DNA of 39,059 nt from NCBI GenBank assembly GCA_016199215.1, contig JACQHB010000007.1, positions 1 through 39,059 on the forward strand, in the 5' to 3' direction. The position numbers and the translations under genes are program-made. Of the stretch, positions 8,899 to 12,218 are shown piece after piece (position 1 is the stretch's first letter; each line of letters begins with the position of its first letter). Source of the DNA: Candidatus Doudnabacteria bacterium (GTDB taxonomy: Bacteria; Patescibacteriota; Doudnabacteria; UBA920; O2-02-FULL-48-8). The notes beneath the pieces are model-generated. The model saw only the letters and a list, made by a program, of their open reading frames with translations. It had not been told where the DNA came from and made no database searches.

Positions 8899-9984
8899 AT
8901 GTTCAACCTTTTGGGAAACAAAAAAATTGAAGCTTTCGGCCTGGATATTTCCAACGTTTCGATTAAGGCCATGATGCTCGGAAAGAAAAACAACGGGCTT
9001 TTTCCTTTGGCTTTTTCCGACATACAAATTCCCGGCAACATCATCTCAAACCATATGATTACCAATGAGGAAAAGCTTGCGGACCAGATCAAGCGAGCCG
9101 TGTCAGCCGCGGGCAAAATTTCCTCCAAATACGTGGTCGCCTCCGTGCCGGAAGCCAAATCTTTTGTCCGCCTGCTTAATCTGCCCAAGCTTTCCGAATC
9201 AGAATTGGATAGCTCCATCCCCTGGGAGTTGGAAGCCGATATTCCGGTGCCTGTGGACCAGGTTTACCTTGATTGGATGATTATTAACCAGCAGGGGGAC
9301 AAGCTGGACGTGCTGGTTATGGCCACTCCCAAGGATTACGTGGACACCTTGGTCTCTTCAATAAAGTCAGCCGGGTTCAAGCCTGCCGCCCTGGAACTGG
9401 AATCGCAGGCCACAGCCAGAGCGCTGGTTTCATCCGTGGATTCGTCTTCCGCTGTCTTGATTTTGGATATAGCGAGCATTTTGACAAGTTTTGTAATTAT
9501 TGAAAACGGGGTTTTGCAATACACGTCAAGCATTCCGCTGGGGGGCAACGCCTTGACCGAAAGCATTGCCAGAAACTTGGGGGTTTCCGCACCTGATGCG
9601 GAAAAAATGAAACGAGAATTAGGGCTTCTTTCGGACACCAAAAAAGGCAATATTCGGCAGGCAATCCTTCCGATCCTTGATAATATTGTTGATGAAATAA
9701 AAAATGTTGCCCGCTTTCATGAGGAGCATTCCGTGGGCAAAAAACCGATCAGCAAAGTGATTCTTGCGGGGGGTGGCGGAAAGCTGCTTGGCATCACCGA
9801 TTATATTTCAGCCCGCTTAAACCTGGGTGCGGCAAAACCGATTGGCCGAGTAGTGCTTGGGGATCCTTGGGTCAATGTGATTGATTCATCTATGAAGGAG
9901 CAAATCCCGCTGCCAAAAGAGCAAGCCCTTGGTTTGGCTACCGTAACCGGCCTTGCGCTGAGAGGGGCAAGCTATGCCCAGTAA
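8899..9984 (+). CDS. pilM: Type IV pilus assembly protein PilM (actin/FtsA-like)
   Basis: FGLDIS, LILDI, IPLGGNALTESIA, VILAGGG, LATVTGLALRG; TATAAT 8 nt before the ATG suggests a leaderless or short-leader transcript. Confidence 0.92.
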   Translation: MFNLLGNKKIEAFGLDISNVSIKAMMLGKKNNGLFPLAFSDIQIPGNIISNHMITNEEKLADQIKRAVSAAGKISSKYVVASVPEAKSFVRLLNLPKLSESELDSSIPWELEADIPVPVDQVYLDWMIINQQGDKLDVLVMATPKDYVDTLVSSIKSAGFKPAALELESQATARALVSSVDSSSAVLILDIASILTSFVIIENGVLQYTSSIPLGGNALTESIARNLGVSAPDAEKMKRELGLLSDTKKGNIRQAILPILDNIVDEIKNVARFHEEHSVGKKPISKVILAGGGGKLLGITDYISARLNLGAAKPIGRVVLGDPWVNVIDSSMKEQIPLPKEQALGLATVTGLALRGASYAQ

Positions 9985-9997
9985 TACAACTTCGCGC

Positions 9998-10426
9998 ATG
10001 TTCTACTATGTTTACATCCTGGAAAGTTTATCAGATGGTAAGCGCTATATCGGTTTTACCGCCAATTTACGGCGTCGACTAGTAGAACATGAACGAGGAT
10101 TAAACTTTTCCACGAAGTTTCGACGCCCGTTTAAACTAATCTACTTTGAAGCCTGTTTATCCGAAAAAGATGCCAAACGCCGTGAGCATTATTTAAAATC
10201 AACCCAAGCCCAGTATGACAACTTCGATAATATTTTCTGGTTTGCTTTTGCTAATAAATTAACTTTTTTATTCTACATCTCTCTGATGCTAATATTTAAG
10301 TTTGTCTATTCAGAAAATATTAAAAAGCAAAAGCATCGAAGTTGCTCTACTGGGCAAGGTCGAAAGTTTACAGGTTTAAGATTAATCGAGTACCAGCGCC
10401 AATCGGCGTTTGGCACGCGAAGTTGA
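9998..10426 (+). CDS. Stand-alone GIY-YIG nuclease carrying a 50-codon in-frame insertion
   Basis: YYVYIL...YIGFT...LRRRLVEH...STK.RRPFKLIYFE...AKRRE.YLKS; removing the insert gives a 92-aa protein reading KSTQGRKF; start at ATG 9998. Confidence 0.85.
   Translation: MFYYVYILESLSDGKRYIGFTANLRRRLVEHERGLNFSTKFRRPFKLIYFEACLSEKDAKRREHYLKSTQAQYDNFDNIFWFAFANKLTFLFYISLMLIFKFVYSENIKKQKHRSCSTGQGRKFTGLRLIEYQRQSAFGTRS
10209..10354. mobile_element. 146-bp MITE-like element with the same TIR family and 4-bp target duplication CAAG
   Basis: Left end CCCAGTATGACAACTTCGAT; right end (reverse complement) CCCAGTAGAGCAACTTCGAT; CAAG at 10205-10208 and 10355-10358; AT-rich interior. Confidence 0.88.
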
Positions 10427-10436
10427 TATACTGGGT

Positions 10437-12218
10437 ATGTCTGACGAAATTTTTGACAAGGAATCTGCCGAAGAATTGTCCGAAAGCGTTCATCGCTCGG
10501 ATTCTTCCTGGAAGCAGTTTTTTCATAAGAACAAAAAAATTATCTACGCTTCGGCCGGCAGTTTGGTTGTGATCCTGCTTGCGGCATTGGGATGGATGAT
10601 TTTTTCAGGACAAAAACCAGGGGTGGGGCCTGCATCTAATAATGTCTTTGTCAAAATCAAAGGCCAGAGCCAAGTAACTTCCGGTAACGAAGGCAATTAC
10701 ACTGTTGTTTACACCAATGGCGAGGCCGCGGACTTAACCAATGTCACGCTGGAGCTTTTTTATCCGTTAAATTTTAAATTTATTTCCGCCACTCCTTCCC
10801 CGACCAATTCCGAAGGCCAAAGATTCAATCTGCCGACGCTTAAAAAGGGAGAGAACGCGGAAGTTAAAATTAAGGGACAGCTTGGGGGAGCAAGCGGCGA
10901 AATTAAAGAATTCAAGGCCAGGCTGACTTATTCTTTATCTAATTTTAATTCGGAATTTGTAACGGAAGACAGCTTCACGACCCTGATTCTCCCGCCTAAC
11001 TTAAGCGTGGAAATTACAGGCCCAATAGATGTAATTGGCGGCCAGGAGACCACGTTTTCCATCAATTATTCAAACGTATCAAGCCAGGCATTTGAGAATT
11101 TGGCCTTAATCGTGGCATATCCCTCGGGATTTAAATTTGCATCCAGCGTTCCGCCCCCTTCCAAGAACCAGAACTATTGGACAGTTCCAAAATTGGACAA
11201 GGGCGGTTTGGGAAAGATAGAAATCACGGGAAGCTTTTCCGCTTCCAACGCCGCTGATGCCATAGTAGGAGTAGAGCTCGGGCAAATAACCAACAATACT
11301 TTCGCGACGTTAATTAACAGCTCCGCGGTTTTTAAAACGACCCCATCATCGTTGTCTTTGACTTTAACAGCCAATCCTAAAGACGTTGTTTCGCTTGGCG
11401 ACAGCATTGAATACACCCTCGATTACGGGAATTTCGGAACTATCGGTTTGACAAACGTCGTGATAACGGCAAGCTTGCAAGGAACGGTTCTTGACTTAAC
11501 CAGATTAAATGTGAGGGACGCGATAGTTACCGGCAATGTTCTGACTTGGAAGTCGGCGACCAAAAGTGAACTGAACCTGGTTTCGCCCAACCAGAAAGGG
11601 AAAATAACCTTTTCTGTGCCCACCAAATCCTCGCTTACAACCAATATTAAAAACCAAACTATTGGGGCGTCAGCTTCGATTTACGCGGCTGAGGTTCCCA
11701 AGCCAGTCCACGTCCCGGATGTCAATTTGAAGTTGGCGACACAGCTAGGCTTGTCCGTAAGCGGCCGGTATGTCCGGGGAGCCTTGCCTATGAAGGTCGG
11801 CGAGTCAACGACCTTTGAGATAACTTTTATCCTGTCGAATTTAAGCAATGATCTTGAAAATGCGCAGGTAGTTTCCTCCTTGCTCCTGCCTTCTTCCTCC
11901 TGGAAAAATATTATCGCCCCTGATTCGGAAAAATCCAGGATTTCTTTCAACCCTGGAGCGGGCAAGATTATCTGGAAGATTCCGCAGGTTTCTGCTTTTG
12001 TCGGCAAGTACGCGCCGGCGCTTATGGCCTCGTTTGAGCTTGAGGTTATACCGACCGAAGCGGACAGAGGAAAGACTGTTAATCTTCTGAAAGATATTCA
12101 AGCAACAGGCAAAGACCTGTTCATTGGCAAGGATGTTTCATCGGGTAATGTTATTGACATAAACACGGCAAACATTGATGACGATCAGTTAAACCTGAAG
12201 GGAAGCGCAGTGCAGTAG
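10437..12218 (+). CDS. Bitopic membrane protein with tandem Ig-like (DUF11-like) domains
   Basis: Start moved to ATG 10437 (MSDEIF); one N-terminal TM; repeated modules YTVVYTN, FSINYSN, GDSIEYTLDYGN and PxxFKFxS. Confidence 0.75.
   Translation: MSDEIFDKESAEELSESVHRSDSSWKQFFHKNKKIIYASAGSLVVILLAALGWMIFSGQKPGVGPASNNVFVKIKGQSQVTSGNEGNYTVVYTNGEAADLTNVTLELFYPLNFKFISATPSPTNSEGQRFNLPTLKKGENAEVKIKGQLGGASGEIKEFKARLTYSLSNFNSEFVTEDSFTTLILPPNLSVEITGPIDVIGGQETTFSINYSNVSSQAFENLALIVAYPSGFKFASSVPPPSKNQNYWTVPKLDKGGLGKIEITGSFSASNAADAIVGVELGQITNNTFATLINSSAVFKTTPSSLSLTLTANPKDVVSLGDSIEYTLDYGNFGTIGLTNVVITASLQGTVLDLTRLNVRDAIVTGNVLTWKSATKSELNLVSPNQKGKITFSVPTKSSLTTNIKNQTIGASASIYAAEVPKPVHVPDVNLKLATQLGLSVSGRYVRGALPMKVGESTTFEITFILSNLSNDLENAQVVSSLLLPSSSWKNIIAPDSEKSRISFNPGAGKIIWKIPQVSAFVGKYAPALMASFELEVIPTEADRGKTVNLLKDIQATGKDLFIGKDVSSGNVIDINTANIDDDQLNLKGSAVQ

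Follow-up and report, generated by a model that had tools for sequence, protein, structure and literature searches.

The window analysed here, a stretch of 39,059 nucleotides from the genome of a Candidatus Doudnabacteria bacterium, contains a small gene of the GIY-YIG nuclease superfamily that is 50 codons longer than its relatives. Where do these codons come from, and what do they tell about the element in which they reside? The preliminary description of the locus, made from the letters alone, had seen in them a 146-bp AT-rich element framed by a CAAG duplication and nested in frame inside the gene. The coordinates and letters of both CAAG copies agree with it, and the G+C content of the element is 30.1%, against 44–46% in contigs of the genome. 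As it had pointed out, the 146 bp of the element plus 4 bp of duplication amount to 150 bp, and the open reading frame (ORF) 9974–10426 stays open with 50 codons added. We conclude that the interval 10209–10354 is very probably a miniature inverted-repeat transposable element (MITE), transposed in inverted orientation into a CAAG site. It would be an ORF-less derivative of elements of ~300 bp that are bounded by terminal inverted repeats (TIRs) and carry a GIY-YIG gene as their only one. The MITE would have jumped into the CAAG inside its cognate GIY-YIG gene, duplicating 4 bp, and would thereby have split the nuclease after Gln70, most likely inactivating the GIY-YIG protein.

The insertion is best seen in a clean comparison with the empty site. 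In the DNA alignment, all five homologous elements hold a single CAAG-type tetramer and lack the 150 bp. In a protein alignment (A1), none of the 15 homologues has residues opposite the 50 additional ones of the window protein, and the segment is unique to the latter. Removal of the insert had been predicted to restore the sequence KSTQGRKF; P0002, a protein of 92 aa with 92% identity to the window protein, reads just this, uninterrupted, at the insertion site. Sequencing data speak for the assembly as well. In runs X1 and X2, 467-nt Logan contigs match positions 9973–10439 with no differences, and in runs X3 and X4 such contigs span both insert junctions in pieces, again with no differences, which disposes of the misassembly that had been considered earlier. 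All these data come from a single groundwater study, three of the four runs possibly from the source sample. No allele lacking the insert, that is, no joint skipping 10209–10354, occurs in the assembled contigs of the four runs; as Logan contigs drop rare variants, the absence of a skipping contig is no evidence on rare excised alleles.

The nested element has the anatomy of a complete mobile unit (Table 1). Its TIRs measure 20 nt, and the arms 10208–10228 and 10335–10355, 21 nt each, are 86% complementary. The left end of the MITE family was defined as the end with the subterminal ATGCTTTTGC block. A 28-mer composed of the TIR and this family-specific block matches positions 10327–10354 of the window on the minus strand with no mismatches, and reverse-complementing the nested copy brings its 28-nt end into alignment with the other copies, so that its orientation is opposite to that of the host element. 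A two-block end motif of 18 nt (7 nt, any 3 nt, 8 nt) is found at 9977, 10209, 10337 and 10418 of the window, four occurrences where 0.02 are expected and a number attained by none of 100 shuffles, which points to two nested elements with an identical end type. Complementary blocks in the interior, another feature of the preliminary description, measure 12 nt and 9 nt (both 100% complementary) and are joined by one further pair. Folded as RNA, the element forms one long hairpin (-47.9 kcal/mol, z -7.5), the base of which joins both CAAG copies; folded as DNA it is a hairpin, too (z -8.1). An Rfam search with the nested element returned sub-threshold plant microRNA hairpin models only.

Table 1 Features of the nested and host elements and of the adjoining genes, in positions of the window
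Feature	Position	Strand	Remarks
Nested MITE	10209-10354	- (in family orientation)	146 bp
CAAG duplication, left copy of nested element	10205-10208		One CAAG/CAGG-type copy in 5/5 homologous elements
CAAG duplication, right copy of nested element	10355-10358		From sequence and empty-site comparison
TIR of nested element, right end of family	10209-10228	+	Central triplet TGA (+ strand)
TIR of nested element, left end of family	10335-10354	-	ATGCTTTTGC block directly inward
Host element, TIR-bounded GIY-YIG mini-element	9977-10435	+	459 bp; 309 bp minus nested insert
TATG duplication, left copy of host element	9973-9976		Its ATG opens a frame through the TIR into the GIY-YIG ORF
TATG duplication, right copy of host element	10436-10439		Its ATG (10437) is the start of the 593-aa DUF11-domain gene
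GIY-YIG ORF	9998-10426	+	142 aa from conserved MFYY start; 150 aa from duplicated ATG at 9974
pilM	8899-9984	+	PilM_2, E 6.9e-45; last two codons and stop inside left TIR
Downstream host gene, DUF11 repeats	10437-12218	+	Start codon abutted by host element

The host element lies between pilM and a gene with DUF11 repeats. The stop codon of the GIY-YIG ORF (TGA, 10424–10426) is located inside the right TIR, 10 nt upstream of the ATG of the host gene. Once the host element and one TATG are taken out, the pilM stop overlaps the start ATG of the next gene; the host element thus struck the point where two translationally coupled genes meet. In a genome of the same genus (G028), pilM lacks the element but overlaps by ATGA with another downstream gene than here, so that no clean empty site is available there.

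The MITE has relatives both in its own genome and beyond it. The genome of the window (G000; 520,915 bases in 16 contigs, 79% complete) holds two further complete copies, at C1:1340-1481 and C6:14462-14607, each with its own 4-bp duplication, and an internally deleted remnant near C8:63891-63926, also with a 4-bp duplication of its own; the genome-wide count is therefore three complete copies, the nested one included, and one remnant. The nested copy is 69–74% identical to the others in this genome and is an outlier at both ends, its core triplets being mutated. Judging by this divergence it may be old, and mutated triplets together with low identity to its genome-mates suggest that it may be no longer mobile. 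When the MITE-specific 28-mer was searched with up to three mismatches, it turned up in 9 of the order's 146 genomes, and the control gave no hits. All nine belong to the family of the window's genome (f1), where they comprise G000 and 8 of the 24 others, with up to 11 copies in one genome. From these nine genomes we extracted 45 complete copies and three lone ends. The complete copies are 139–151 bp long in 42 cases and 66, 105 and 110 bp in the remaining three, and identities within a genome reach 0.98.

Target duplications of the 45 copies measure 4 bp in 32 cases, 3 bp in six, 5 bp in four and 0–1 bp in three, the commonest being TTGA (7), ATGA (7) and TCAA (5). The fourth base, which adjoins the left end of the MITE, is always a purine (32/32), giving the target NNNR. 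The YAWG target deduced from the two duplications of the window has to be abandoned, as it fits, in either orientation, only 5 of the 32 four-bp duplications. Another early statement, that all four ends in the window conserve two blocks around a variable centre, stands for the blocks and falls for the centre. Read on the same strand, the central triplet is ATA at 44 of the 45 left ends and 43 of the 45 right ends of the family, and it appeared variable because this core is not inverted and because the nested copy is mutated. The occurrence of ATA on the same strand at both ends indicates a conserved non-inverted core that is unpaired when the arms pair. The right end abuts an ATG that begins an ORF of 80 aa or more at 15 of 45 copies, the left end at none of 45; the ATG-facing right end is also the orientation of the ORF-bearing elements and may reflect either targeting or survival. 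The ends themselves are common to both kinds, the same 18-nt motif bounding the GIY-YIG element and its relatives.

Relatives of the host element that bear an ORF are found across Patescibacteria, with lengths of 286–347 bp. A scan with one genome per species gave at least 582 of them, and 80 loci were kept: five lie at contig ends, five have no TIR by the rule used, and at 70 the ORF is closely framed by TIRs. Because the boundary rule mis-sets some loci, the following counts on the 70 TIR loci are lower bounds. A duplication of at least 3 bp occurs at 44 of 70 loci (offset control, 2 of 70) and reads TATG at 26, ATG at seven and ATGA at six loci. At the right end of no fewer than 41 of the 70, the duplicated ATG serves as the start of a host ORF of 80 aa or more. 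G029 has two ORF-bearing copies that are identical at 309 of 309 bases and reside at different loci, and two copies at different sites are also present in G028 and in the genome of L031/L033; this argues that the ORF-bearing element moves as a TIR-bounded unit. Taken together, the empty site, the absence of the insert from homologues, the 45 copies with their own duplications and the identical pair in G029 uphold the earlier view of the nested element as a second, independent insertion of a mobile TIR family, and the 45 complete ORF-less copies in nine genomes fit the non-autonomous form that had been postulated.

The only ORF between the TIRs of the host element encodes a protein that is readily recognised. 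ORF 9974–10426 matches the GIY-YIG domain PF01541 with 56.5 bits (cut-off 22.6; E 3.6e-15), and of 155 candidates 154 proved to be relatives. The 119 relatives listed besides the window protein are 86–113 aa long, save P0108, which is extended N-terminally to 146 aa. The active site of GIY-YIG nucleases consists of conserved Tyr, Tyr, Arg and Glu residues. In A1, Y6, Y17, G19, R27, E30, H31 and E51 are invariant, also in the window protein, which retains all 20 invariant columns of the alignment, and the gene has no sign of decay other than the insertion. NCBIfam gave a sole, sub-threshold match, to the group I intron endonuclease family TIGR01453 (24 bits, cut-off 56), and a tblastn search of plasmids with P0002 found no match. 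An AlphaFold2 model of P0002 (pLDDT 89) has the fold beta-beta-alpha-beta-alpha-alpha and, among solved structures, comes closest to UPF0213 BH0048 and Slx1. Sequence searches against structures matched 1zg2 (E 1.1e-10), 1ywl (2.8e-7) and SLX1 7wme (1.1e-4). With Foldseek, 1zg2 was found at E 6.7e-5, Slx1 chains at E ~4e-3 with TMq ~0.6, and I-TevI weakly (E 0.4).

Modelled as a homodimer, P0002 scored 0.81, the best control reaching 0.27. Of 30 proteins solved as same-chain pairs, 20 pass the mark applied to this score, as does 1 of 23 known as single chains. Contacts agreed between runs (≥100%), and the pLDDT of the partner was at least 88. The model supports self-binding of the GIY-YIG protein as a homodimer. 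Homodimers of Slx1 have solved structures, and the pass may reflect likeness to them. In the AlphaFold2 model the insertion point after Gln70 coincides with the start of the last helix (69–87), which contributes residues 78–82 and 85 to the predicted dimer interface. Fifty mostly hydrophobic residues at this place would probably inactivate the nuclease.

Which enzyme, then, moves the elements? With middling confidence, we propose that the GIY-YIG protein itself, acting as a dimer, may cut the TIR boundaries and make the staggered cut in the target, and that intact GIY-YIG copies would move the MITEs in trans. Its gene is the sole one that elements of ~300 bp can fit, and ORF and matched TIRs have stayed together across the phylum, in hundreds of genomes, with the ORFs intact. 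Different GIY-YIG subfamilies are accompanied by different TIRs: the genome of the window encodes a second paralogue (C4:86926-87204) with a CCCGTTAGAG-type TIR, and also contains 12 short ORF-less pairs with a CCCGTTAGAAAT-type TIR, closely similar to the CCCGTTAGAG type. Within the family, 6 of 9 MITE-bearing genomes encode the cognate GIY-YIG protein, compared with 1 of 16 MITE-free ones (Fisher p = 0.003, uncorrected for kinship). The likeness of the protein to UPF0213 proteins and to the nuclease domain of Slx1, a structure-specific endonuclease, also speaks for it. The only cognate gene in the genome of the window is the one in which the nested MITE sits. GIY-YIG enzymes are hydrolytic nucleases; such an enzyme cannot itself join DNA, and the pasting step would need host repair. 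The length of the duplications, 3–5 bp and not fixed, is unusual for a transposase and counts against the GIY-YIG protein as the enzyme.

A conventional transposase, or a host recombination or repair enzyme, could instead move MITEs and ORF-bearing elements alike in trans, and the GIY-YIG gene would then be a passenger, or would encode a selfish nuclease whose sole effect is to help the element persist. We consider this rather unlikely. Three genomes (G039, G035 and G030) bear MITEs without a cognate GIY-YIG gene, among them G039 (98% complete), whose 11 MITEs are up to 98% identical and in which all TIR ends with at most one mismatch belong to MITE pairs. Moreover, the phrase 'GIY-YIG transposase' was met in no paper of the literature searched, and no such transposase is on record. 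Our search for other enzymes covered nine transposase families in 5 or 10 genomes, several of them incomplete. Genes of the rve family are present in 3 of 10 genomes, G039, G018 and G029, which have many or very similar copies; those of G039 and G018, however, are bounded by their own inverted repeats, unrelated to the TIRs of the MITEs, and the other seven genomes have no rve. Y1_Tnp genes were identified in 4 of 10 genomes (G000, G039, G029 and G030), but Y1 enzymes make no target duplications, and there is no TIR motif near the Y1_Tnp gene of G000 (C12:9377-9607). The seven further families, PF01609, PF13358, PF07282, PF13701, PF13546, PF13586 and PF00872, were each absent from five of five genomes, PF01609 also from five additional ones, and G000, at its completeness of 79%, gave no matches to PF01609, PF13358, PF13701, PF13546, PF13586, PF00872 or PF00665. 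Another enzyme also sits poorly with elements that are too small for a second gene and nevertheless keep ORF and TIRs in hundreds of genomes, and with subfamilies that each have different TIRs and their own short derivatives.

A further-reaching proposal can be made, tentatively and at somewhat less than even confidence: the TIR elements of ~300 bp may be the smallest autonomous transposons known and form a new enzymatic class, with a dimeric, Slx1-like GIY-YIG nuclease of 92 aa as their sole protein. Such elements would insert at or beside start codons and duplicate the ATG, the ribosome-binding site and ATG of the host would drive the nuclease, and the nuclease stop codon in the right TIR would return the ribosomes to the host gene. 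MITE families would arise repeatedly from these elements, and the nested copy would have knocked out its own source gene.

It remains to consider why the insert left the frame open. Five of its six frames contain stops, and the only stop-free one is the frame in use, read through from the host ORF. The other two complete copies in the genome have no open frame, and a read-through ORF spans only 3 of the 45 MITE copies. Shuffled insert interiors were open in 5.1% of 20,000 trials; together with the one-in-three chance of the frame, this puts the probability of an in-frame, stop-free outcome at a few percent. A chance of this size is not negligible for a feature that was noticed after the fact. 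An open frame by pure chance is the alternative to selection on translation, for which we would argue with some reserve: the insert may possibly have been tolerated for being frame-preserving and stop-free and for keeping translational coupling in the operon. Ribosomes coming from pilM would read through the insert to the ORF stop 10 nt before the next ATG; a stop within the insert would end translation ~200 nt ahead of the downstream ATG and break the coupling from pilM via GIY-YIG to the next gene.

A different way for the insertion to remain silent would be removal or bypass of the hairpin at the RNA level, for instance by cleavage of the TIR stem, with an intact GIY-YIG protein as the result. 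The single long hairpin (z -7.5), with both CAAG copies joined at its base, would suit such a process, and RNase III is known to excise intervening sequences of rRNA genes. No known bacterial pathway, however, rejoins mRNA after a cleavage of this sort, the Rfam matches are to sub-threshold hairpins only, and hairpin potential is an ordinary result of the TIRs of a MITE. The GIY-YIG ORFs that PMC11270868 reports from insertions other than introns in CPR rRNA genes lend the idea some plausibility, and we still regard it as very improbable. That the protein natively possesses the 50-residue segment as an insertion domain, or that the segment is an assembly chimera, has next to no probability: open frame and hydrophobic segment would agree with a native domain, but TIRs, a 4-bp duplication and 45 family copies elsewhere speak against either, a domain would not be missing in 15 of 15 homologues, and a chimera would not have both junctions spanned without differences by contigs of four runs.

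Among known systems, the nested MITE belongs to a familiar kind, and its GIY-YIG partner element is the unusual part. Bacterial MITEs such as the Correia elements of Neisseria, RUP of Streptococcus pneumoniae and Nezha of cyanobacteria are likewise short, AT-rich, non-coding and multi-copy, with TIRs, a short target duplication, hairpin potential and ends shared with an ORF-bearing element. The partner described here differs in being ~309 bp long and in encoding only a GIY-YIG nuclease of 92 aa and no known transposase class. Rickettsia palindromic elements (RPE), too, are palindromic repeats of ~150 bp that reside in frame within genes, keep the ORF open and add a peptide. The likeness is one of description; in-frame residence is exceptional in the present family (3/45), which has clear TIRs, a 4-bp duplication and a putative autonomous partner. 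REPIN/RAYT systems resemble it in the small enzyme gene flanked by inverted repeats and in the many short, ORF-less hairpin derivatives within one genome, but REPINs have no target duplications and the enzyme is a Y1 HUH transposase. We rejected this assignment in view of the duplications and of the Y1_Tnp gene of G000, which has no TIR motif nearby. A classical insertion sequence, which encodes a DDE, DEDD, HUH, Ser or Tyr transposase between its TIRs, was rejected as well, with the GIY-YIG gene as the only ORF and no DDE-type family matched in G000 (79% complete), and so were integron attC, IS200/IS605 and Xer-type insertions, given the diverse insertion sites with true duplications.

The protein has its best sequence and fold matches among UPF0213/YhbQ-type and Slx1 GIY-YIG (URI) nucleases, in comparison with which the gene described here is TIR-bounded and mobile and its product has neither RING/zinc finger nor Slx4 partner. 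Slx1 combines its GIY-YIG domain with a C-terminal RING/zinc finger and works with Slx4; the 92-aa protein is a nuclease domain only, and identity with Slx1 was rejected in spite of the likeness to the nuclease domain of the latter. GIY-YIG homing endonucleases (I-TevI, T4 Seg proteins) offer another parallel, that of a selfish GIY-YIG gene spreading between genomes. Homing endonucleases, however, join the nuclease to a DNA-binding domain, which the 92-aa protein lacks, and its elements occupy many unrelated, duplicated sites instead of one cognate site into which homologous repair copies the gene without duplication; with the TIGR01453 score far below the cut-off and many sites with duplications, this identity was rejected, too. 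The insertions closest in setting come from the same phylum and involve the same protein superfamily: according to PMC11270868, GIY-YIG ORFs in insertions of CPR rRNA genes lie outside introns and outside the homing pattern. The passages on them mention no TIRs, duplications or short derivatives, and the comparison is one of descriptions. A prokaryotic TIR element with GIY-YIG as its only gene was not described in the literature covered by our search, which left out subscription journals, and the family of GIY-YIG mini-transposons is probably undescribed so far.

Elements landing in each other are common, and a nested insertion is ordinary as a phenomenon. Its value here is that it exposes the family: the TIRs, and not the ORF, are the moving unit, and the enzyme has a single candidate, the product of a GIY-YIG gene of 92 codons. 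Should GIY-YIG proteins mobilise these elements, one more nuclease superfamily would join the transposase chemistries, the many scattered small genes annotated as 'GIY-YIG nuclease family protein' in Patescibacteria would be explained in part, and a compact, easily tested system of ~300 bp and one small protein would be at hand. The elements sit in operons without breaking them, and their placement at start codons also matters for annotation. Owing to the duplicated upstream ATG, gene callers lengthen the ORFs, giving rise to N-termini of the type MPSNTTS...

The host element, a miniature GIY-YIG element bounded by terminal inverted repeats (TIRs), sits exactly where the stop codon of pilM overlaps the start of the next gene. 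The duplicated ATG places the GIY-YIG open reading frame (ORF) in frame behind the host translation signals, and the right TIR holds the stop codon of this ORF, 10 nt 5' of the host ATG. This layout recurs in at least 41 of the 70 related loci in which TIRs closely enclose a GIY-YIG ORF.

Many copies of the ORF-less MITE family, to which the insert nested in the host element belongs, are located at a TTGA within sequences that resemble TTGACA, in either orientation (seven TTGA and five TCAA duplications). After one of them, on contig C6 of the genome under study (G000), a promoter-like TTGACA-17-TATACT site is found. The orientation of the copies relative to genes is biased: in 15 of the 45 complete copies the right end abuts the ATG of an ORF that is 80 aa or longer, and in none does the left end. 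Shortened forms also exist, namely an internally deleted remnant of ~36 bp in G000, still flanked on both sides by the TCAA duplication, and a 66-bp form in the related genome G017 (L151).

Comparison of window positions 9994-10418 with contigs of four metagenome runs from one groundwater study revealed 8-15 contigs per run in which the left TIR is joined to the right TIR by a G+C-rich hairpin of ~30 nt; these are mini-elements of ~70 bp located elsewhere in the community. The TIR contigs have many different loose flanks, which shows that the TIR is abundant in this community. Contigs of runs X1 (depth 24) and X3 (depth 15) lead from a right TIR end through CAA to a left TIR end (window 10435 back to 9976), and represent a circle junction or else two elements in tandem, tail to head. 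Neighbouring elements in tandem also occur in L050, L057, L059, L077 and L078.

A Y1_Tnp (IS200/RAYT-like) gene is present in G000 inside an open frame of 218 aa, and similar genes were found in the related genomes G039, G029 and G030. The motif search of G000 detected no MITE-family TIR motif near the G000 gene.

G000 harbours a second repeat family, with TIRs of the CCCGTTAGAAAT type. Twelve pairs are short (38-121 bp) and ORF-less; a further copy bears a different GIY-YIG paralogue and is adjoined by the ATG of the next gene. Three more GIY-YIG paralogues lie directly 5' of tRNA genes, each with a partial or near-complete duplication of the 5' part of the tRNA upstream, and reflect another mode of insertion. 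The same arrangement was found in relatives (L125, L130, L135, L139, L141 and L144).

Coordinates of the elements and genes described
Feature	Locus	Position
Host element with duplications		window 9973-10439
MITE, TTGACA-like site	L115	G000:C6:14462-14607
MITE, TTGACA-like site	L090	
MITE, TTGACA-like site	L100	
MITE, TTGACA-like site	L109	
MITE, TTGACA-like site	L150	
MITE, TTGACA-like site	L156	
MITE remnant	L108	G000:C8:63887-63930
Y1_Tnp gene		G000:C12:9377-9607
CCCGTTAGAAAT-type GIY-YIG-bearing copy, 279 bp	within L148 (G000:C4:85442-88684)	G000:C4:86926-87204
GIY-YIG paralogue 5' of tRNA gene		G000:C1:3035-3548
GIY-YIG paralogue 5' of tRNA gene		G000:C2:4225-4735
GIY-YIG paralogue 5' of tRNA gene		G000:C6:38059-38602
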